Shown one piece after another: positions 1 to 10,257 of a stretch of 32,000 nt of DNA. The position numbers and the translations under genes are program-made. Under the pieces are notes generated by a model, which saw only the letters and a program-made list of their open reading frames with translations, was not told where the DNA came from and did not search any database. The stretch is taken from the NCBI RefSeq assembly GCF_900182835.1, contig NZ_FXUB01000001.1, positions 676,945 to 708,944 of the forward strand. The letters run 5' to 3'. Numbering within the stretch: position 1 is the first letter of the stretch; every line of letters begins with the position of its first letter. This stretch comes from Desulfurobacterium pacificum. GTDB lineage: Bacteria; Aquificota; Aquificia; Desulfurobacteriales; Desulfurobacteriaceae.

Positions 1-46
1 TTCATTAAATTCTATTCTCAACCTGAAACACATTCAAGCACCTTAA

Positions 47-1693
47 TCAAGAATTTTCACTGTCAGAATCTTCTATCCATTTAAAAAATTTTTCCCATTC
101 TTCTTCGCTTAAATTGATGTCTAAATCATATTCATCAGCAGAGCTTTCTTTAGAATTCTTTTCTGGCTCTTCTAGAATTTTAATTTTTATTTTCCCTAAA
201 ATCTCTTTTCCTAACGCATTCTTTAAAAGCTTTAAATTCCGACGATTCAGACTCAGAGAAGATATAGTCCCATCTTCCACCAGATATTCAAGCACGCTTT
301 TTCCGGTAGAATCTGTTAATAAAAGGTAGTCTATCAGTTTGTCCTGCAGTATAAAGTTGGCAGGATTTCCTGACCGGATTTTTTTAAGCTCCTTCCTGAG
401 AAACAGGACTCTTGCCTTAACCATATTATCTTTAGAAACTCTACTTTTACGACGTATTTCTTTTATTTTTTCCTTTTTTTCCTGACTTAATTCTGGAAGC
501 ATAGGTATCTGAAAATTAAAGTCTGCTTCAAGCGCCCATCTCACGAAAGAAGCATTCACAACCACAGGTAAAACACTGCCGTGCATAAGATCCCATTCAA
601 CCGCCTCTCTAATTTTGGATAAAAGGCTTTCCAGCCTCCTTACACCTAAGTATTCTTTTTCGTTTTCTTTTTCACATATCTTCGCTAACTCTATTTTTGC
701 GTCGTTTTCCACAACAACTACGTCAGGAATGGAATTAGTTGAATCTCCTGAAGGCAGGTATTCCTGCATTTTAGAACTGATGATAGCCAGATAGTCTTCG
801 TATCCCAGCTTTCTGACATTTATGCGGACGTTAAGCCTTCCTTTCAGTTCCGGTGCAAACTCTTCCGGTGAAGTTTCAGTGAAAGCTCCAGCTAAAATGA
901 AAGTTATGTGAGAAGTGTCGATAGAATCAGAAGACTTCTCTGCCCTTACCCAACCACCTTCGATAAGCTCTAAAAGGTGATACTGGAGGCTGCGGTAGAA
1001 ACCCTCTTCATCGTCTCCCCTTTCTTTTATTAAAAGCTTATCTGCTTCATCTATAAAGATTAAACCAAAGGGACGTTTTTGAAAGCTCATCAAGACAGGG
1101 AAATCTTTATCCTTTTTCTCTTCAAAACCTGGAAAAGACAGTATTTCACCGGCTATTTCTTCAATCAAAGAAGCAGTTTCTAAAGCATCTTCTGAACCAT
1201 TAAATCTGTCATACATGAACTCTAAAACCCGTGTGTGTCTGAGAAAGACTCGGGCAGCTGCGTATTCGAGAGCAGCCTTTAATTTCTCAGGTGAGCTTTC
1301 AGATTCGCAAAAAGCAGCAAGAGCTTGCTTGTATAAATAATAGTTTTTTGCCAGATCTTTAATTCCGTGATAACTATTCTTAACCGCAGACGCAAATTCT
1401 GCAGTAACTATTTCGTGCGGATCTTTTCCCTTATAGCCTGTCAAAGTATACTCAGTTATGGATACTTTAGTAAAAGGAACCTTGAGTTTCTGCGATAGGG
1501 CTCTTGCAATCTCCGTTTTACCGTTTCCGGTAGGACCTACAATCAGGCAGTTGTTCTTCTTCCTGGAACGTCCTTCAAGGTAAGCTTCCAGATTTTCGCA
1601 GATAGCATTTGACAGCTTAAAAAGAGCTTCAAGCTGCCCTACTACTTTTTCGCTGAGTTCACGAGCCAAGTAGTAGCTTGCAAATTCCAGCAT
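47..1693 (-). CDS. HslU/ClpX-family AAA+ ATPase (unfoldase-like) with a divergent ~150-aa C-terminal extension; no HslV-docking tail
   Basis: 548-aa ORF with RBS AAGGAG 7 nt upstream of the ATG. It is collinear with E. coli HslU motifs recalled from memory. These are Walker A GPTGNGKTEIARALSQKL (res 53-), pore-loop GYKG (86-89, HslU GYVG), an I-domain-like insertion (~95-205) and Walker B LIFIDEADKL (211-220). Also present are sensor-1 HITFILAGAF, Arg-finger region PELKGRLNVR and sensor-2 LGVRRLES. Residues ~396-548 have no HslU counterpart. They comprise a K/E-rich linker, a possible small helical domain and an acidic tail (SEEEWEKFFKWIEDSDSENS). Confidence 0.85.
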   Translation of the reverse strand: MLEFASYYLARELSEKVVGQLEALFKLSNAICENLEAYLEGRSRKKNNCLIVGPTGNGKTEIARALSQKLKVPFTKVSITEYTLTGYKGKDPHEIVTAEFASAVKNSYHGIKDLAKNYYLYKQALAAFCESESSPEKLKAALEYAAARVFLRHTRVLEFMYDRFNGSEDALETASLIEEIAGEILSFPGFEEKKDKDFPVLMSFQKRPFGLIFIDEADKLLIKERGDDEEGFYRSLQYHLLELIEGGWVRAEKSSDSIDTSHITFILAGAFTETSPEEFAPELKGRLNVRINVRKLGYEDYLAIISSKMQEYLPSGDSTNSIPDVVVVENDAKIELAKICEKENEKEYLGVRRLESLLSKIREAVEWDLMHGSVLPVVVNASFVRWALEADFNFQIPMLPELSQEKKEKIKEIRRKSRVSKDNMVKARVLFLRKELKKIRSGNPANFILQDKLIDYLLLTDSTGKSVLEYLVEDGTISSLSLNRRNLKLLKNALGKEILGKIKIKILEEPEKNSKESSADEYDLDINLSEEEWEKFFKWIEDSDSENS

Positions 1694-1809
1694 GACAAAC
1701 TCCTTACAATAAGGTTAATTGATTGTTGTTCTTCCCAGATACTTTTTTATTCAAAACATCAGCTACGGTAACTTCAGAAACTGATAGATTCGGCAGGAGC
1801 TGCTGGACT

Positions 1810-2046
1810 TCACGGCTTTTCTCGGCTGGAGTTTTCACTTCTGGTGGAAGGCGGTAAACGGTTGTCCCTTTCTAAAATTTTTCTGATAACTTCATTTATG
1901 TGCTGGTTAATAGACCTATATCCGTTATCTATCAACCACTTTTTGTATTCCTTGAGTATTTCCCTTCTTACCCTGATGGTGGTCTGAACGAATTTTTTTT
2001 CCTTCTTTCTTTTATCGCTTTTCATATCATGACACCTTGACGTCAT
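1810..2046 (-). CDS. Ribbon-helix-helix (CopG/Arc/MetJ-like) DNA-binding protein
   Basis: 78-aa ORF. It shows the RHH pattern: a basic N-terminus, beta-strand VQTTIRVRREI, helix LKEYKKWLIDNG and helix SINQHINEVIRKILER. An alternative and better-supported start is the ATG at 2025 (MKSDKRKK...), which has AAGGTG 7 nt upstream. Confidence 0.65.
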   Translation of the reverse strand: MTSRCHDMKSDKRKKEKKFVQTTIRVRREILKEYKKWLIDNGYRSINQHINEVIRKILERDNRLPPSTRSENSSREKP

Positions 2047-2061
2047 TTCTTTCTATTTATG

Positions 2062-2089
2062 AAGATAATCCCCATTCCCCGACAGTCAA
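2062..2089 (-). promoter_or_regulatory. Putative sigma70-type promoter for the RHH/AAA+ unit
   Basis: On the minus strand, TTGACT (2089-2084) is followed by a 16-nt spacer and TATCTT (2067-2062). It lies in the 130-nt gap between the DUF2283-like gene and the RHH gene. The call rests on sequence pattern only. Confidence 0.3.
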
Positions 2090-2174
2090 GGGGGAAAGAA
2101 AAAGTAAAAATCAGACCAGTAGGAGGAAGAAAGATTCCAGAAATCCCTCTTTCAGAATTAGGAACGTGGATTTC

Positions 2175-2474
2175 TCAGATATCAAAAAATTTCTTCCAGC
2201 CGAATATTTCTAAACCTGCTGGTTCGCCATCCTCGTCAAAATCAACTATAAAACCGCCGCTGAAATATTCGCCCTCGCATCTTCCTTTATCGGAAATCGT
2301 GACCCAGAGGATATCGTCTTTAGGAAAATACTTTGATTTTTCTTTGAGTTTCTCTATGGTAAGAGATATCCATTTTCCTTTTTCAGTGTCATAGAAAGAT
2401 ACATAAAGAATGTCGCTACTCTTATCATATTTAAGTTTTCCTTCTTCAGGCTTAAAAATGTCTATTTCTTCCAT
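2175..2474 (-). CDS. DUF2283-like small protein, probably translationally coupled to pAgo
   Basis: 99-aa ORF. The N-terminal KLKYDKSSDILYVSF and C-terminal GGFIVDFDEDGEPAGLEIFGWKKF match the remembered DUF2283 consensus (YD..aD.lYi ... vvDyd.dG.ivGiEil). The start lies 9 nt after the pAgo stop, and a GAGGA RBS sits across the pAgo stop codon. Confidence 0.6.
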   Translation of the reverse strand: MEEIDIFKPEEGKLKYDKSSDILYVSFYDTEKGKWISLTIEKLKEKSKYFPKDDILWVTISDKGRCEGEYFSGGFIVDFDEDGEPAGLEIFGWKKFFDI

Positions 2475-2483
2475 CAGTTCCTC

Positions 2484-4547
2484 TCATAGAAAATAAAGCG
2501 CTCCCATTTCAAGAAGGTATTGGTCAACTATCCAGTTTCTTCTTAAAGCGTTCACGTAAAGGTGAGAATAGTGAATTGGTGCGGGCAACCTCAGTTTGTT
2601 TTCATCATTGAATATGGTAGAAAAGTTAAGCTTGGTTAGTAAAAAGAGTGTTCTTATGAGTTCAGAGGTAATTGAATTAGGAGAGTATTGCCCGTAACTT
2701 ATTTCCCAGAAACTGTCTATCAGAATGCTTCTGGCACCTTTGCAAGAGTGAGGTAAGAGAACGGCCAAATCCTTTCTTAAGACAACGCCTTTCTTTCCTT
2801 CGTCGGATAATATGCGGAAAGAATGCCCTTTCTTAATATTGGCGGTAAACACTTTTAATTTTCTATCTTTTACAACATAAGATTCAGATAAAGAACCTAC
2901 TTCATCTTTATATAGATTCCCGTCTTTTAGCAGTAAAACTCTGCTGCCGTAAACGTTTATTTTCTCCACAACTATTTCAAGTATCCAGTTAAGGTTATCT
3001 ATTTTCTCTCCTCCTGTATCGATAGAAACAGGATAAAGACCTTTTATAGTGCCATCAGATAGAAATACAGTTATCCCTCCTGCACGAGTTCTACGGTTAA
3101 AAGGATCGTTACCGCAATCAACGCCTATGATAAGGTCGTAATTGAACTTTTCTGACAGAGAGAATGGTCTTATACCGAGCTTGGCGTATATGTTATAGAC
3201 TAAAGTTCTAGAAATATTTAAAGGATTAGAGTTTCTTATCCATTTATCATAAATGACAAACTGGCTTATTATGTTTTTGGCAAACAACCTTCTTTTAAGA
3301 GAATCGTATTTTTCTTTGTTCATTTCAGGAATAAGGCAAAGAGCAGAAGAAAATTTGTATTTACTAATTTCTTCCTGAATTTTTTTAGGTAAAGAAAAAT
3401 CGTCGAAATCAACTATAAACACAAGTTTGCCTTTAGCAGGACGTATCGTCTTAAATAGTTCTTTGTAACCTTCTATTCTGTTTAGTTTTAAAGCTTTCTT
3501 ATCTTTAAGTTGACTACGTAAAAACGCATTTACGCTGCTTTCATTAAATCTTTTGTCTACCAAGACGAAAAATGGCATTCCTCCCTGTTCTTCTATGTAT
3601 TGTGGAATAGAAAACGGAGGGTAATTCAATACTTCTTTAAGTGAAAAAACCTTTTTCTCTGTTCCATCTATGGTTTTAACTACATAAACTGGCTTTGAAA
3701 AAAGTTTTCCATCTATGCTACAGGGAGTATCAGCTAAAAACGGAATCTTCCTGACAGTTTCTTTCAGGATTTCTTTTCTCTCGAAATTTGAAATTACGAG
3801 TTTATTAGGGGATAAAGTTTTAGTTCGGTAGCAAGTGTCAGGATGAAATGGATAAACCCTGCCTTTTCTACCGAATTTAGCTTTCAAAATGGGAAATTCT
3901 TTCGGGAAATCTGTTACGCCGTATTTTTTCTCTAGAAGTTTTAAAATGCTTTCTCTCTCTTCTTCAGAAGGACTTTTAATCACTTCTTCTACGTTTATAA
4001 GGTCGCCCTTACCAGGACTATTTCCAGGAGGATAATAGAGCAATCTTTCTCCAACTATATCTTCTAAGGTAATCTCATTCCGTTTAAGCATCTGGTAAAT
4101 ACTTCTGTACCATTTAACCCTGTGCTTTAGGTCAAAGAATAAATAGAATTTTTCTCTGATTTTTCTTACGGTGAAGTTTCCGATAGTGAGTATTACAGAA
4201 TAGGAAGAATGAATTTCTTTCTTTTTAGGAAGGTTTTCTTTAAGCAGTTTTTTTATTCCTTTTTCGTTCAAAATTTTTATAAGTATCTTCTCTTGAATGA
4301 AGTCTTGAAGTTTTTGAAATGGTATTTCCTCTAACAATTCTGCATCGCTGCACGGTAATGATTTTCTGTGAGATACCACTTCAACTTCTGCATCTTCCAC
4401 AGGAGTAATAGGGACACCTATAGAGCGAACTTCTCCGTTTCTCTCATCTAAATCTTCTGATTGAGGAATAAGACGAAATCTATAAACAACATCAGGAATA
4501 ATTGACGGTACTATTTCAAAACCATTGAGTTCCACTTTGGTTTCCAT
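2484..4547 (-). CDS. ago: Long prokaryotic Argonaute (pAgo), PIWI domain with an apparently intact DEDH catalytic tetrad
   Basis: 687-aa ORF with RBS GAGGGGG upstream. PIWI motifs are IIGVD(477)CGND, TGGE(514)KI, VLLLKD(542)GNLY and LPAPIHYSH(662)LYV. The last aligns with the hAgo2 PAPAYYAH and AaAgo PATVHYSD motifs. The MID 5'-end binding motif is Y414-K418-Q429-K456 (KYDSLK...SQF...YAKLG). Length and C-terminus (GALYFL) resemble Aquifex/Thermus-type long pAgos. Confidence 0.9.
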   Translation of the reverse strand: METKVELNGFEIVPSIIPDVVYRFRLIPQSEDLDERNGEVRSIGVPITPVEDAEVEVVSHRKSLPCSDAELLEEIPFQKLQDFIQEKILIKILNEKGIKKLLKENLPKKKEIHSSYSVILTIGNFTVRKIREKFYLFFDLKHRVKWYRSIYQMLKRNEITLEDIVGERLLYYPPGNSPGKGDLINVEEVIKSPSEEERESILKLLEKKYGVTDFPKEFPILKAKFGRKGRVYPFHPDTCYRTKTLSPNKLVISNFERKEILKETVRKIPFLADTPCSIDGKLFSKPVYVVKTIDGTEKKVFSLKEVLNYPPFSIPQYIEEQGGMPFFVLVDKRFNESSVNAFLRSQLKDKKALKLNRIEGYKELFKTIRPAKGKLVFIVDFDDFSLPKKIQEEISKYKFSSALCLIPEMNKEKYDSLKRRLFAKNIISQFVIYDKWIRNSNPLNISRTLVYNIYAKLGIRPFSLSEKFNYDLIIGVDCGNDPFNRRTRAGGITVFLSDGTIKGLYPVSIDTGGEKIDNLNWILEIVVEKINVYGSRVLLLKDGNLYKDEVGSLSESYVVKDRKLKVFTANIKKGHSFRILSDEGKKGVVLRKDLAVLLPHSCKGARSILIDSFWEISYGQYSPNSITSELIRTLFLLTKLNFSTIFNDENKLRLPAPIHYSHLYVNALRRNWIVDQYLLEMGALYFL

Positions 4548-4986
4548 TACTTTTACCCCCTCTTCTTGTTTTCTTTGAGAATTTTAAAATTTTTCTTAAA
4601 AAGAATAAAACAAGTTCCTCTCACGCCTGAATCAACTTTTTCAAAAAGATCAATACCTCTCTTAGACATATTAAGCCATCAGCTCAGATAGGAAAAGCTG
4701 GCTTGTGGTAATCAACCGTGTGGAACGCACTGCACTACACACAACTTGAGTTTTAAACAGGCTTTTTGATTCACCCGTAAACGAGGGGATACGGAAGCTA
4801 TTGATAACATTATTGAGAGAAATTTATGATAGTTGTTCCAACCCCTAAACCGCTGAAAAGAGACTGAGAAATGTCAAAGAATTGTATTATAAAAGCTATG
4901 GAAAAAGAGTAACCGTCAAAAAGTTGCACACCTTAAAATAGAAAACAGGAAGGGAAAGTAATACTCAATTTTTGTGGGAGAAGGAA

Positions 4987-5568
4987 ATGAACACTTCGCT
5001 TACGCCGATGACAATTGTAATCGGAACTTGTGCTGTTGCGATTATGGTCCTATTTATCACCTATCTTGCTATTTTTGTATTGAACTATGATGTTAATAGG
5101 AAGGAAAAAGAAATCATCCTTTCTGAGATTACTCCTGAAACGTTAAAGGAAGCTGGGAAAAAAGCAGAAAAGATACGTATTCCTGCCAATGCGCTTACCC
5201 CAGAGCAGAGAAGAAGATTAAGGGAAATGGGGGCAGTAACAGCTTCAACGGATGATTTCCTTCTAAAAGCAGGTATGCTGTATCTACTGTATGAAACTCT
5301 TTTTGACAATGATGACGCTAAAACAAACGAAATCCTGTCTAATCAAGAAGAAACATACACATCTGATATAAATTCAAGCACTGACGATACCGATGCAAAT
5401 GAGCAGACAACAGATATTTTTCAAAGTCAAGAAGAAAACATAGAGCAATCTAACGACTCTTTGGATTACGTTCCCTCTTTAGACGATAATAATGCTGCAA
5501 ATGATTGGGATAGTAGAAGTGAAAGTAGTTGGGATTATGCTGATGACAGTTGGGATAGTGATTGGTAG
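4987..5568 (+). CDS. Single-pass membrane protein with a long acidic low-complexity tail ending in four Trp within an acidic, Ser/Asp-rich stretch
   Basis: The track ORF starts at TTG 4972. The ATG at 4987 is preceded by GGAGAAGG and is the likelier start (193 aa). The N-terminal TM segment is TIVIGTCAVAIMVLFITYLAIFVL. The C-terminal ~90 aa are D/E/S/T/N/Q-rich and end NDWDSRSESSWDYADDSWDSDW. Confidence 0.6.
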   Translation: MNTSLTPMTIVIGTCAVAIMVLFITYLAIFVLNYDVNRKEKEIILSEITPETLKEAGKKAEKIRIPANALTPEQRRRLREMGAVTASTDDFLLKAGMLYLLYETLFDNDDAKTNEILSNQEETYTSDINSSTDDTDANEQTTDIFQSQEENIEQSNDSLDYVPSLDDNNAANDWDSRSESSWDYADDSWDSDW

Positions 5569-5708
5569 TGAAGTTCAAGAGGTTTAAACTTGCATATAGT
5601 CTAAACAATAAAAAAACGCTTTTAGAAACATGGATTGTCAGATGTTTTATAGAGAAAAAAATAAAACCAGAACAGGCTGCTATATAGGGAAAACTTTGTA
5701 TACCGGGC

Positions 5709-5804
5709 TCACCCTACTTTTTTCTTCCCTAAATAGTCAATTACTTCAAAACCGATAAGTGAAGTAAGTATCAGCGCTATAAAAATCCACATTCCTACTA
5801 CCAT
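5709..5804 (-). CDS. Small hydrophobic peptide (31 aa), paralog 1 of a tandem family
   Basis: My own translation gives MVVGMWIFIALILTSLIGFEVIDYLGKKKVG. The ATG lies 2 nt after the stop of the upstream paralog. It is too short for the ORF track. Confidence 0.4.
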   Translation of the reverse strand: MVVGMWIFIALILTSLIGFEVIDYLGKKKVG

Positions 5805-5806
5805 TG

Positions 5807-5917
5807 TTACTTCGTTTTCTCCTTCTTCTCTAATTCTTTTTCATCTATGTAGTAGATTATTTCAAAGCCAATAGTCATTAAAATAAACATTATTCCGAGA
5901 ATTATTGCTGCAATCAC
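5807..5917 (-). CDS. Small hydrophobic peptide (36 aa), paralog 2
   Basis: A GTG start is preceded by AAAGGAGGG. Translation gives (M)IAAIILGIMFILMTIGFEIIYYIDEKELEKKEKTK. It shares the GFE(V/I)I.Y core with paralog 1. Confidence 0.4.
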   Translation of the reverse strand: MIAAIILGIMFILMTIGFEIIYYIDEKELEKKEKTK

Positions 5918-5927
5918 TTTCCCTCCT

Positions 5928-6015
5928 TTAAAGGCTTCTCAGTTCTTTCTTGCTCTGATAATTTACCGTCTCAAATATAATAGTTATTGACGCCAGCATT
6001 ATTCCAATGAATCAT
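5928..6015 (-). pseudogene. Third copy of the small-peptide family, either 5'-frameshifted or truncated
   Basis: The in-frame ORF from ATG 5999 gives MLASITIIFETVNYQSKKELRSL (23 aa). An upstream ATG at 6015 (MI...) is out of frame by 1 nt. Removing one C restores MIIGIMLASITIIFETVNY..., which aligns with paralog 2 (MI..GIM...FE..Y..KEL). Confidence 0.3.
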
Positions 6016-6094
6016 TGCAATAACCAACTTTTCCTCTGAAAATTGCGAATTCTTCTCCAACCTTATTTTAAAATTACTATCGGAGGTAAGCAGC

Positions 6095-6541
6095 ATGGCA
6101 TTACTGAAAATACACACCATAGAGGCAAAGATTTACAGTCGCAAGAGTCCAGCGTTCTTAATCGGCAGAGTAAGTTATGACACGAAAACGCCAGAAGACT
6201 ATGAAATCAAGCCAGTTGCTAAAGGTAAAACCAAAATTCTCATTGGGACTAAAGGGATATACATACTCAACGACAAGATAACTGAAGAAATCATTAGTAG
6301 AGTTTGGGAAAACTACCTAAAAGAGAGGAAAGGAAACAGAAACAGGAAAGAGGGAATAGTAGAACACCCCGTAGAAGTAATTGAAGATGAGGTAAGAAAC
6401 TACTTCTGCGAAAAAGGAATTGTTCCTATGCCCGAAACAGGCTGGATTAACTTCTCCTATGAAATCCCAGACTTTGAAAAGATGAGGAGAAGTATTCTGG
6501 AAATTGTTAAGGAAGTAAAAAGAAAGGTAGTAAAAGAGTAA
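6095..6541 (+). CDS. Hypothetical protein (148 aa), no recognisable family
   Basis: Clean ORF with a GGAGGT RBS 7 nt upstream of the ATG. Its K/E-rich composition matches its neighbours. Confidence 0.55.
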   Translation: MALLKIHTIEAKIYSRKSPAFLIGRVSYDTKTPEDYEIKPVAKGKTKILIGTKGIYILNDKITEEIISRVWENYLKERKGNRNRKEGIVEHPVEVIEDEVRNYFCEKGIVPMPETGWINFSYEIPDFEKMRRSILEIVKEVKRKVVKE

Positions 6542-6576
6542 GATTAAAACTTACATGCAAGTTACAAATCGCAATT

Positions 6577-6723
6577 ATGAGAAAGGACAAAATGAACACG
6601 AAAGAAGTCCTTAAAACAAAATCTATTTATAACAGAGAAGACTTATTGAAAATTAGGGTTTTCCTATCAGCCATCTTGAATGTTGCAAAATGCAAAGTCC
6701 CGAAAGATTCCGTAAAAGCTTAA
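6577..6723 (+). CDS. Possible small ORF (48 aa; alternative start 6592, 43 aa)
   Basis: My own translation gives MRKDKMNTKEVLKTKSIYNREDLLKIRVFLSAILNVAKCKVPKDSVKA. It has only a weak RBS (AAAGGA before the second ATG). It fills the gap between the 148-aa and 77-aa genes on the same strand. Confidence 0.2.
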   Translation: MRKDKMNTKEVLKTKSIYNREDLLKIRVFLSAILNVAKCKVPKDSVKA

Positions 6724-6770
6724 CTACGATTTCCTGAAGAGAATATCACTTTCAAAAGCAAGGAGGAAGC

Positions 6771-7004
6771 ATGCCAATAGCGGTTGAAGATAGAGAATTG
6801 ATAGAAAAGGCTTGCGAAGTTCTTGTAAAGGAACTCGGACTTATAGGATTTGTGAGGTTTGTAAAGCTTATGGGCTGGGCAAAAAGAAACTGGACAGAAG
6901 AGAGAAAAGAAGTTCTTAAAGAACTGGAAGAAAAGCTGATGAAAATGACTACCGAGGAAGTCGTCGAATACTTTGCTGAGGGAAGAAAAGTAAGACCGGG
7001 ATAG
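6771..7004 (+). CDS. Hypothetical small helical protein (77 aa)
   Basis: A strong RBS AAGGAGG lies 5 nt upstream of the ATG. The protein is predicted all-helical and K/E-rich. I recognise no family. Confidence 0.5.
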   Translation: MPIAVEDRELIEKACEVLVKELGLIGFVRFVKLMGWAKRNWTEERKEVLKELEEKLMKMTTEEVVEYFAEGRKVRPG

Positions 7005-7138
7005 GTTGTTGTGTAGGTTCATTCAAAAAGAGAAGAATATTGCTTAAGACAGGATTGCTAGGTAGGATTACAAACCTGTTCTTTTTGGGTAAAGAAGCAT
7101 TTACGGGGTAAAAATGCCGAAAATAAACGAATATGTAA

Positions 7139-7240
7139 CTACCTATCAACCTTCTTAGGAGTGTAGGTAGCACCCCAAAAGATAATCCCTATTAGGATGA
7201 AGATTCCGAGAAAAATCAAGAGCCCCGCTATCGTATCCAT
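7139..7240 (-). CDS. Small hydrophobic peptide (33 aa), same architecture as the 5709-6015 family
   Basis: My own translation gives MDTIAGLLIFLGIFILIGIIFWGATYTPKKVDR, with AGAGG before the ATG. A TM helix is followed by a basic tail (Y.PKKV here, YLGKKKV in paralog 1). Confidence 0.35.
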   Translation of the reverse strand: MDTIAGLLIFLGIFILIGIIFWGATYTPKKVDR

Positions 7241-7446
7241 CCTCTAATTCCCTCTTTAAAGAGATGTTACAGAAAAGAATAATTTCTTTCAACATTTCTA
7301 AAAACTGCTCTAGCGGAACAAAACAACTCTCGGGTTCAGGAAAACTTTTCCGTCAACGTTTAAAACATATTTTTATCTTATGCAAGAATTTCATCACCCT
7401 TGCTGCATATCAATAGAATTCAGACTCAGGAGGGCTCACTAAACCA

Positions 7447-10257
7447 ATGAAAGACAAAATCATCATTAAAGGTGCAAGGCAGCACAACTTAAAAAACATA
7501 GACCTTGAAATACCAAAAAATAAGTTAGTAGTCATTACGGGAGTTTCCGGTTCTGGAAAATCCTCCCTCGCCTTCGACACCCTCTACGCCGAAGGGCAGC
7601 GCCGCTACGTAGAAAGCCTTTCAGCCTACGCAAGACAGTTCTTGGAACTGATGGAAAAACCGGACGTTGACCTCATAGAAGGACTTTCCCCTGCCATTTC
7701 AATAGAACAGAAAACCGTTTCAAAAAATCCCCGCTCCACCGTCGGCACCACCACAGAAATCCACGATTACCTGAGAGTCCTCTTTGCAAGGGCAGGAACG
7801 CCCTACTGCCCCAACTGCAACGTCCCCATCCAGCCCCAAACGGTGCAGGAAATCGTTGACAGAATTCTTGAAAAAGAAGGCAAAAGAGTAATACTGCTTT
7901 CCCCTATCGTCAGAGAAAGAAAAGGCGAACACAAAGACCTTTTAGAAAAAATCGCAAGGCAGGGCTTTAGAAGGGTAAGAATAGACGGCAAAGAATACAG
8001 AATAGAAGAAGCCCTTGAACTGAAGTTAGAGAAGAAAGTTAAACACACGATAGAAGTTATCGTTGACAGGATAAAAGTTTCCGCAAAAAACAAAAACAGA
8101 ATAGCAGACTCGGTAGAAATAGCCGTAAAACTCTCAGACGGCTTGGTTATAGTTCAGGACTACGAAACAAAAGAGGAAGAAACCTTTTCCACCAAAGGCG
8201 CTTGCCCGATATGCGGATTTTCCTTCAAGGAAATCTCACCCCGCCTATTCTCTTTCAACAGTCCTTTAGGCGCCTGTCCCGAATGCAGCGGCTTAGGCTT
8301 TAAGTTAGCAATAGACCCAGACCTCTTAATAGACTGGGACAAGCCGATAATAGAAGCCGTAGAACTTTCCCAAAAGGCAAAGTTTGAATACCTGCAGGAC
8401 ATGATAGAAACAGCCTGCGAATACTTGGGAATTTCCTCTCTCACGCCGGCAGGAGAAATAAACAAAGACGACCTGAACTTTATCCTCTACTCACCGAAAC
8501 AGCCGATAAGAATTTTTAACACCGTTCCTTTTAGCAGAGGTAACTACAAACCATACTACTTTGAAGGAATAATCAAACACCTTGAAAGGCGCTACTTTGA
8601 ATCGGAATCGGACTACGTAAAAGAGCTGATAGAACCCTACTTGAGAGAAGTCACCTGCAAAGCCTGCGGTGGCAAAAGGCTTAACAGAGAAGCGCTGTCG
8701 GTAAAAATAGCAGATAAAAACATAGCTGAAGTTGAAGCTTTAACGGTAGAAAAGTGCTACGAGTTCTTTGAAAACCTTCAGTTGGAAGGAAAGAAAAAGC
8801 TAATAGCAGAACGAGTTTTAAAGGAAATCAGAAACAGGTTAAAGTTCCTCATAGACGTCGGACTTACCTACCTGACTCTTGACAGGCGAACGGCAACCCT
8901 TTCCGGCGGAGAATCTCAAAGGATAAGGCTTGCAACACAAATAGGCTCAAGGCTGACGGGCGTTCTCTACGTTTTAGACGAACCGAGCATAGGCTTACAC
9001 CAGAGGGACAACAGAAAACTCATTGAAACCCTGAAAGGACTGAGAGATTTAGGAAACACCGTAATAGTGGTAGAGCACGACACCGAAACGATAGAAAGCG
9101 CAGACCACGTAATAGACATGGGACCGGGCGCAGGAATTCACGGCGGCGAAGTCGTTGCCTGCGGAACGCCGGAAGAGATAAAGAAAAACGAAAATTCCCT
9201 AACCGGAAAGTACTTGAGCGGAAAACTGAAAATAGAAGTACCGAAAGAAAGAAGGAAGCCGGGTGACAAGTGGCTTAAAATCATCGGCGCTTCAGAGCAC
9301 AACCTAAAAAACGTTGACGTTGAAATACCTTTAGGCTTGTTCGTCTGCGTCACAGGCGTTTCCGGCTCTGGAAAATCCACCCTCATCAACGAAATCCTCT
9401 ACAAAGCATTAGCCCGCGAAATTTACAACTCAAAAGTAATCCCCGGAAAACACGAAAGAATAGAAGGTTTAGAACACGTTGACAAAGTAGTAAGGGTTGA
9501 CCAGTCTCCCATAGGCAGAACGCCCCGCTCAAACCCTGCCACCTACGTTGACGTCTTTACCCCCATAAGAGAGCTTTTCGCCGCAACGCCGGAAGCAAGA
9601 GCAAGGGGCTACAAAAAGGGAAGGTTCTCCTTTAACGTTCCCGGCGGAAGGTGCGAAGCCTGCAAAGGCGACGGGCTGATAAAGGTTGAAATGCACTTTC
9701 TACCCGACGTTTACGTAACCTGCGACGTGTGCGGAGGAAAGCGCTATAACAGAGAAACTTTAGAAATTACCTACAAAGGCAAAAACATCTACGAAGTCCT
9801 TGAAATGACCGTTGAAGAAGCGATGGAGTTTTTCAAAAACCACCCGCGGATATTCAACAAGCTGAAAACCCTCTACGACGTGGGACTCGGCTACATCAAG
9901 TTGGGGCAACCGGCAACGACCCTTTCAGGCGGCGAAGCTCAAAGAATAAAGTTAGCAAGAGAACTCTCAAAGAAAGGAACGGGAAAAACCGTTTACATAT
10001 TGGACGAACCAACGACAGGACTTCACATCCATGACATTAAAAAGCTCATAGATGTCCTTCAAAGATTAGTTGATAAGGGTAACACCGTAATAGTTATAGA
10101 ACACAACCTTGACTTTGTAAAGTGCGCCGACTGGATAATAGACTTAGGACCAGAAGGCGGAGAAAGAGGTGGACAGGTAGTAGCGACAGGAACGCCAGAA
10201 GACATAGCAAAAACAAACACATGGACAGGAAAGTTCTTAAAAGAAGTCCTTTCTTAA
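7447..10257 (+). CDS. uvrA: Excinuclease ABC subunit A
   Basis: 936 aa with two ABC ATPase modules ([14 protein letters not shown] and [10 protein letters not shown], each with LSGGE.QR signatures). Zinc-finger Cys pairs are present (CPNC, CPICG...[12 protein letters not shown]...CDVCGG). Confidence 0.97.

Follow-up and report, generated by a model that had tools for sequence, protein, structure and literature searches.

Probable juxtaposition of an Argonaute gene pair and an HslU-paralogue ATPase gene pair in Desulfurobacterium pacificum

The left end of a 32,000-nucleotide stretch of the Desulfurobacterium pacificum genome (contig NZ_FXUB01000001.1, forward-strand positions 676,945 to 708,944; hereafter the window) carries four genes, which encode a prokaryotic Argonaute (pAgo), a small DUF2283 protein, a probable ribbon-helix-helix (RHH) DNA-binding protein and an AAA+ ATPase that is a paralogue of HslU. 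An original prediction, made from the letters of the sequence, had proposed that these genes constitute an undescribed Argonaute-linked system. The reading favoured here, with moderate confidence, is that two separate modules lie side by side in a variable, slightly AT-rich stretch, and not that they form a new Argonaute system. The first would consist of the pAgo and DUF2283 genes and the second of the RHH and ATPase genes, and we infer no functional coupling between the two. Comparison with other genomes does not support the proposal of a four-gene system, the adjacency of pAgo and ATPase having a single evolutionary origin. Outside a single collinear locus in a related genome (L011), relatives of the pAgo are never found near genes for the ATPase, the RHH protein or DUF2283, and homologues of the ATPase are never found near pAgo genes (0 of 7 loci), which largely amounts to a finding that the original prediction had itself set against its proposal.

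The Argonaute and DUF2283 genes

All four open reading frames are present on the minus strand, in agreement with the original description of four co-oriented genes. The pAgo gene (2484 to 4547) encodes a long-A protein of 687 amino acids in the clade of MjAgo and PfAgo. Its earlier assignment as a catalytic long pAgo is upheld by alignment over its full length, by the catalytic tetrad and by the residues of the MID pocket. The Piwi domain (PF02171) is matched with 59.5 bits against a cut-off of 28.9 (E 4e-16), and the top PADLOC model is PprPIWI (E 5e-46 over residues 80-687), a model name that left no trace in the literature searched. The nearest matches in the PDB are the Argonaute 8jsi, MjAgo (5g5s and 5g5t) and PfAgo (1u04), at E values of 1e-37 to 1e-42, and the alignment with MjAgo covers residues 69-687 of 687. 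Within it, D476/E513/D541/H661 align to the MjAgo tetrad D504/E541/D570/D688, and Y413/K417/Q428/K455 fall on the Y/K/Q/K positions of the MjAgo MID pocket. D476, E513 and D541 are invariant in an alignment of four pAgo sequences; the fourth catalytic position is occupied by H here and by D in a clade of relatives at 48% identity.

MjAgo, PfAgo and 8jsi are long-A DNA-guided DNA endonucleases of hyperthermophiles. The protein in the window shares with them the D-E-D-H/D residues, the Y-K-Q-K 5'-phosphate pocket, the C-terminal LPAPIHY motif and a thermophilic host, although this host is bacterial (Aquificota), sequence identity is low, and a coupled DUF2283 gene follows the pAgo gene. By analogy with MjAgo and PfAgo, whose properties are known, we infer that the protein carries out DNA-guided DNA cleavage. 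It would be an autonomous Argonaute that binds 5'-phosphorylated small DNA guides in the Y-K-Q-K MID pocket and then cuts complementary invader DNA via its DEDH PIWI site at high temperature.

The 99-residue product of the next gene (2175 to 2474, minus strand) is a DUF2283 protein, as had been suspected (PF10049, 48.1 bits against a cut-off of 23, E 1.3e-12). Its ATG follows the pAgo stop codon by 9 nt, and the sequence GAGAGG overlaps that stop codon, so that the ribosome-binding site lies where it had been placed before. The two genes are probably co-transcribed, with translational coupling. DUF4258 and DUF2283 proteins form putative toxin-antitoxin pairs, and the gene in the window resembles these in encoding a small DUF2283 protein in a two-gene arrangement; unlike them, it has no DUF4258 gene beside it, and the upstream position is held by the pAgo gene. 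The DUF2283 protein may be an accessory factor or regulator that was acquired by this lineage and is made together with the pAgo.

Neighbourhoods of Argonaute relatives

Four relatives of the pAgo with at least 48% identity were obtained by protein search or metagenome scan, and where these are labelled, all are from Desulfurobacteriaceae. The metagenome scan relied on a hand-made 45-nt degenerate pattern for the motif LPAPxHY[SA][HD]x[YF]VxAL, which recovered eight metagenome pAgo loci; an earlier scan with automatically chosen patterns from the pAgo N-terminus had returned chance matches only. Near the other pAgo relatives, which show 75%, 48%, 27% and 25% identity, no gene for DUF2283, an RHH protein or an HslU-like ATPase was found, the metagenome loci being searched by tblastn at E <=1e-3.

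The orthologue at 75% identity (P0055, locus L016) sits between gyrB and an SBP_bac_5 gene, without any of the cassette partners. Its nucleotide homology to the window is limited to the open reading frame and its edges, starting 11 nt ahead of the ATG and stopping no more than 4 nt from where the stop codon ends. The solute-binding protein gene begins 8 nt after the stop codon of the L016 pAgo and is unrelated to it; tight spacing in these compact genomes is therefore no sign of shared function. The relatives at 48% identity have unknown proteins, a serine recombinase, an IS605 OrfB-type transposase and HEPN genes as neighbours, and the relative at 25% identity lies among metabolic genes. Taken together, these loci show a pAgo gene that changes place and is kept by itself. 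At L102 (263-3307), a 708-residue pAgo with 27% identity is followed after 14 nt by a BrxL-like gene encoding a Lon-like AAA+ protein (BrxL_N E 7e-30, BrxL_ATPase E 2e-55), which is cut by the contig end. No paper linking BrxL to pAgo operons was found in the literature searched.

Two loci of the 48% clade (L106, 246-8759; L109, 174-4468) are in a mobile context, with a transposase that carries a Cas12f1-like TNB domain. In this clade, a conserved unknown gene of 209-240 codons is present upstream of the pAgo, and a gene of 149-171 codons, whose product has weak coiled-coil-type Pfam matches, is present downstream.

The RHH protein and the HslU-like ATPase

The third gene (1810 to 2046, minus strand) encodes a 78-residue protein, or one of 71 residues if the start at 2025 given by gene callers is adopted. 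Pfam gives no match for this protein. The other signals are weak and mutually consistent: the N-terminal domain of NikR (E 0.02), Arc (E 0.9), NikR in NCBIfam (E 0.027) and a family of phage Arc-like repressors (E 0.002). On the basis of these matches, it is a probable RHH DNA-binding protein.

The original prediction had placed a promoter-bearing gap ahead of this gene. The gap is real (2047 to 2174, 128 nt); the promoter fared less well. A weak promoter-like site is present on the minus strand at 2089-2062 (TTGACT-16-TATCTT, matching at 9 of 12 positions), and such matches are not enriched, with 10 found against 11.4 expected from shuffled sequence. There is also a second gap, absent from the original prediction, of 116 nt between the RHH and ATPase genes (1694 to 1809), in which AAGGAG lies 7 nt 5' of the ATPase ATG. 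No terminator-like sites are predicted among the four genes.

The last gene of the four (47 to 1693, minus strand) encodes an ATPase of 548 amino acids. NCBIfam, PDB profile and Foldseek matches all agree with its earlier placement in the HslU clade. Its Pfam matches are AAA_2 and AAA. The best NCBIfam match is TIGR00390 (hslU), at 122.5 bits, far below the curated equivalog cut-off of 362.45. Profiles of HslU structures in the PDB align to residues 10-96 and 207-390 (E 1e-28 to 1e-29), and the top Foldseek PDB matches of an AF2 model (pLDDT 73.8) are all HslU. The model places a helical insertion of about 110 residues (approximately 93-206) between the two Walker motifs, at the position of the HslU I-domain. 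Alignment with HslU reaches no further than about residue 390, and the small AAA+ subdomain is followed by a 150-residue extension (396-548).

The ATPase belongs to a family of 14 homologue clusters (P0001-P0014) of 494-555 amino acids. A sharp gap separates this family (E <1e-83) from the canonical HslUs of about 435 residues (E ~1e-25). In the alignment of the 14 homologues, Walker A, Walker B, the arginine finger and sensor-2 show little or no variation, and the pore loop reads TLTGY(K/R)G(K/R)D, with H in one member, not GYVG. Residues G464, E469, L471 and E473 of the C-terminal extension are invariant in all 14 members. Given that this extension is common to members with and without a pAgo nearby, it is not a pAgo-specific adaptation. 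It had also been suggested as a query with which to collect homologues; used in this way with phmmer against 1.84 billion representative proteins, it recovered only itself.

The resemblance to HslU (ClpY), the ATPase of the HslUV protease, thus comprises the AAA+ core of the HslU/ClpX clade, the GYxG form of the pore loop, an insertion at the I-domain position, the arginine finger and sensor-2. The differences are a GY(K/R)G loop in place of GYVG and an insertion that is all-helical in the model. Furthermore, HslU docks HslV by a free C-terminal tail, whereas the ATPase continues for 150 residues past that position and has no hslV nearby, and its relatives are paired with an unknown protein of 397-524 amino acids. 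The possibility of an hslV gene just beyond the left edge of the window, raised in the original prediction, was examined on L001, a longer contig of the same genome that extends 1.3 kb past that edge, and none is there. Indeed, no hslV or other proteasome-family gene is present in any of the nine distinct ATPase-family loci examined.

Among PADLOC models, no defence ATPase matches over its full length: IetA (2e-7), PDC-M37B and DolB cover approximately 35-60 residues around Walker A, and mad8 (E 3e-6) spans residues 45-222 with 25 bits only. Scans of viral contigs with the ATPase and with the pore-loop motif gave no match. A scan of a genome collection with the ATPase alignment yielded 0 family members in the 80 loci kept, and its Walker B pattern drew 590 canonical HslUs.

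A partner gene upstream of ATPase homologues

By BLASTP, homologues of the ATPase at 37-43% identity were located at seven distinct loci (L002, L005, L008, L012, L014, L100 and L101). At none of the seven is a Piwi gene present within 10 kb or up to the contig end. At all seven, the ATPase gene is preceded by a gene for a protein of 397-524 amino acids, whose stop codon either overlaps the ATPase start or precedes it by 2-21 nt. The resulting partner and ATPase modules occupy L002:8720-11485, L005:8460-11575, L008:8709-11518, L012:838-3996, L014:4874-7607, L100:5345-8076 and L101:5501-8271. Where their hosts are labelled, these are Thermovibrio or Desulfurobacteriaceae. The pair is an undescribed two-gene module, seen in Desulfurobacteriaceae and in vent metagenomes.

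The partner proteins of L002, L005, L008, L012 and L014 are of one family, with 26-38% identity, and the 412-residue partner at L101 matches the family member P0061 by length and contig. The family comprises seven clusters, none of which is named as D. pacificum, and tblastn finds no remnant of it in the window. Conserved motifs include PLIILPEL, VIxSPL, KVGMNEL, GDILIPIKRKG, NVAIICEE and IAIIRL. The last three, in the order GDILIPIKRKG...NVAIICEE...IAIIRL, may resemble HsdS/TRD domains, an impression to which Pfam lent no support. Searches of the family against Pfam, PADLOC and PHROG gave no match, and profile-profile comparison with the pAgo gave no similarity. For an AF2 model of the partner (pLDDT 52.6), Foldseek returned nothing below E 0.27.

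The surroundings of the module differ from locus to locus. The genes 3' of it encode an ankyrin protein, proteins of 367 and 338 amino acids, or proteins of 106 and 298 amino acids. MazEF, an integrase fragment and RmuC are found nearby at L101, AbiEii at L012, a transposase and an ankyrin protein at L008, and a type ISP restriction enzyme at L002. The modules of L002, L014 and L100 occupy one chromosomal site beside a NIF3 gene. At L014 this site lies between rplM-rpsI-asd and NIF3, and it carries different cargo in L002 and L100. Just 5' of the module at L014 (2677-4590) are four tandem paralogues of about 91-104 amino acids, with 26-35% mutual identity and no family match.

L005 and L008 contain different paralogues of the ATPase (P0011 and P0004) and come from the same metagenome (ERZ27262631), with a tetranucleotide correlation of 0.98; one organism may carry both copies of the module. 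The contig with the solitary pAgo, L016, is from the same metagenome as L008, and the two correlate at r = 0.91, with the halves of the window at 0.89.

Comparison with the collinear locus

The whole cassette is found in one other place, L011, where it includes an ATPase homologue with 68% identity (P0002) and is followed by the start of a gene for a 149-residue protein. L011 is collinear with the window over 5.6 kb at approximately 81% nucleotide identity, up to about position 5575, with the flanks and the divergent upstream gene for a predicted membrane protein included. It thus represents the orthologue of this locus in a related strain or species, and not an independent occurrence. The L011 pAgo is annotated with an N-terminal extension; the corresponding sequence of the window is not in frame with the pAgo gene.

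Divergence between the two loci is uneven. At the nucleotide level, the intergenic region ahead of the pAgo gene (4548-4971) is 89% identical, the pAgo gene 85.6% and the DUF2283 gene 90%. Identity falls to 51% in the first spacer (for this figure, the 149-nt interval from the DUF2283 stop codon to the ATG at 2025), is 77% in the RHH gene, drops again to 42% in the second spacer and stands at 71.5% for the ATPase gene. The DUF2283 and RHH proteins share 89% and 75% of their residues with the L011 copies. The dS values are 0.57 for pAgo and 0.37 for DUF2283, against 1.12 for the RHH gene and 1.68 for the ATPase gene. The step falls at the spacer between DUF2283 and RHH and is consistent with two units that differ in history or constraint and have regulatory regions of their own. 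The corresponding dN/dS values (0.14 for pAgo, 0.14 for DUF2283, 0.15 for RHH and 0.115 for the ATPase) reflect purifying selection on all four genes, and all are therefore real and functional.

Two modules or one system

In the reading with two juxtaposed modules, the second would begin with the probable RHH protein, a repressor that lies between the two diverged spacers and may regulate its own expression, and continue with the HslU paralogue. The ATPase would form a hexameric ring and thread substrates with its GY(K/R)G pore loops. With the HslU-type C-terminus buried under the 150-residue extension, it would not need HslV and would remodel its substrates either by itself or with another docking partner, which in sister lineages would be the upstream 397-524-residue protein. 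A lineage-specific link between the pAgo and the ATPase is still conceivable, adjacency being the one observation that speaks for it.

Several points weigh against two separate modules. The four genes are co-oriented, have no predicted terminator between them and have stayed together under purifying selection in two diverged genomes. The usual partner of the ATPase is missing here, and pAgo, DUF2283 and RHH stand in exactly its position; the ATPase would thus need a substitute or work alone. The contrast in dS could be due in part to constraint on codon usage, and not to separate histories. The pAgo and BrxL-like AAA+ genes at L102 could hint at a recurrent theme in which a pAgo is combined with a ring ATPase. 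Finally, sampling is thin, with 4 pAgo clades and 14 ATPase clusters.

These points bear on other explanations, of which the first is the one originally proposed: a single integrated Argonaute system of four or five genes, in which the unfoldase recycles pAgo-guide-target complexes or acts as an effector triggered by target recognition, with the DUF2283 and RHH proteins as adaptor and regulator. We regard this as improbable. It would account for the co-orientation and the lack of terminator-like sites, for the retention at L011 of the cassette together with the gene for the 149-residue predicted membrane protein, and for an ATPase whose motifs are intact and under purifying selection while its usual partner is absent. 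It would also be new, as was said at the outset, in that the literature searched yielded no description of a pAgo partnered by an HslU/ClpX-type or DUF2283 protein, or of such an association. However, there is one evolutionary occurrence, the nearest pAgo orthologue is solitary, and no pAgo is present at any of the seven other ATPase loci; the C-terminal extension also occurs in members with no pAgo link, and a step in divergence, with diverged spacers, separates the two gene pairs. To our knowledge, the related long-A proteins MjAgo and PfAgo act without accessory ATPases, and this too counts against an integrated system. An ATPase that is simply the HslU of this genome, partnered by an HslV encoded elsewhere, is far less probable still. 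HslU is the nearest characterised family by both sequence and fold, and NCBI, which has a 100%-identical protein from D. pacificum, and JGI both use the name HslU, but the score of 122.5 bits against a cut-off of 362, the sharp gap from the canonical proteins of about 435 residues, the 150-residue extension past the position of the HslV-docking C-terminus and the lack of hslV in the nine distinct loci all speak against it.

It may also be that the ATPase serves as the fixed motor of a mobile, modular unit for conflict or defence in which the sensor or effector genes are swappable, these being the 397-524-residue partner in most lineages examined and pAgo, DUF2283 and RHH in Desulfurobacterium. 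This is unlikely in our view. The pairs of partner and ATPase occur in variable contexts, often with toxin-antitoxin, transposase or restriction genes nearby, the downstream genes differ by locus, and in the window the partner is replaced at the same position. On the other side, neither the ATPase nor the partner has a meaningful PADLOC match, the NIF3-adjacent site shared by L002, L014 and L100 is compatible with vertical inheritance, viral contigs gave no matches, and AF2 and Foldseek gave no fold match for the partner. A reading that overlaps with this one is that an HslU-paralogue ring was recruited to a catalytic pAgo in Desulfurobacterium, where DUF2283 and RHH replaced the usual partner and the ATPase came to remodel Argonaute complexes at the expense of ATP or to act as their effector. 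On that view, L102 would supply another instance of a pAgo combined with a ring ATPase. We consider such recruitment quite improbable; the missing partner, the retained cassette and L102 are leads towards it, and not evidence of coupling.

Comparison with described pAgo modules is relevant to this choice. These include SPARTA and SPARSA (TIR- or SIR2-APAZ), long-B pAgos with nuclease, SIR2 or membrane effectors, SiAgo-Aga1-Aga2, and pAgos with Cas4-like or helicase neighbours, and their partners recur over many unrelated operons, mostly with inactive or short pAgos (in part after Ryazansky 2018, PMC6299218). The cassette in the window is similar in that same-strand genes lie directly 3' of the pAgo gene. 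It differs in having a catalytic pAgo and non-recurrent neighbours, for none of which does any PADLOC effector model give a match.

Should the modules be independent, as favoured here, the pAgo would be a further DNA-guided nuclease from a thermophile, possibly of use as a high-temperature tool, but not conceptually new. The modestly new element would be the small family of HslU paralogues without hslV nearby, seen so far only in Desulfurobacteriaceae and vent metagenomes. This family combines a charged pore loop with a conserved C-terminal extension and an adjacent partner, and knowledge of its substrates would widen the roles assigned to HslU/ClpX-clade motors beyond proteolysis. Were the ATPase to act for the pAgo instead, no unfoldase-type accessory factor of an Argonaute would have been reported before it.

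Flanking regions

The 424-nt intergenic region 5' of the pAgo gene (4548 to 4971) is better conserved between the window and L011, at 89% identity, than is the coding sequence of the pAgo, at 85.6%. Regulatory function or an RNA that has escaped annotation could account for this. An Rfam search of 1-7500, this region included, gave no match, and a tRNA scan of the window found none. Beyond it, on the plus strand (4972 to 5568), is the divergent gene for a 198-residue protein. This gene, whose homologue in L011 is at 638-1114, closes the shared block on the right. This protein has no family match in Pfam, PADLOC or NCBIfam; a hydrophobic segment at residues 8-42 is a predicted membrane anchor, and the C-terminal tail is acidic and rich in tryptophan. 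Past the left edge of the window, the conserved gene for the 149-residue protein, which has predicted membrane segments (L001:11703-12152), is followed by two small unknown genes.

Acidic, aromatic-rich C-terminal tails are found on three proteins of the block: the 198-residue protein (...NDWDSRSESSWDYADDSWDSDW, kept in L011), the ATPase (...EEEWEKFFKWIEDSDSENS, window 47-140) and the 149-residue protein (...DDDELFDFDTNTGD). Given the positively charged GY(K/R)G pore loop, such tails could be recognised by the ATPase, although this is purely speculation.

The AT-rich island described in the original prediction is present but mild: GC content is 0.34-0.40 over positions 1-7000, compared with 0.39-0.48 for the remainder of the window. 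The uvrA gene (936 codons, 7447-10257) lies about 1.9 kb past the end of the block shared with L011. Near it, GC content climbs from approximately 0.36 to 0.46, marking the return to the core genome.

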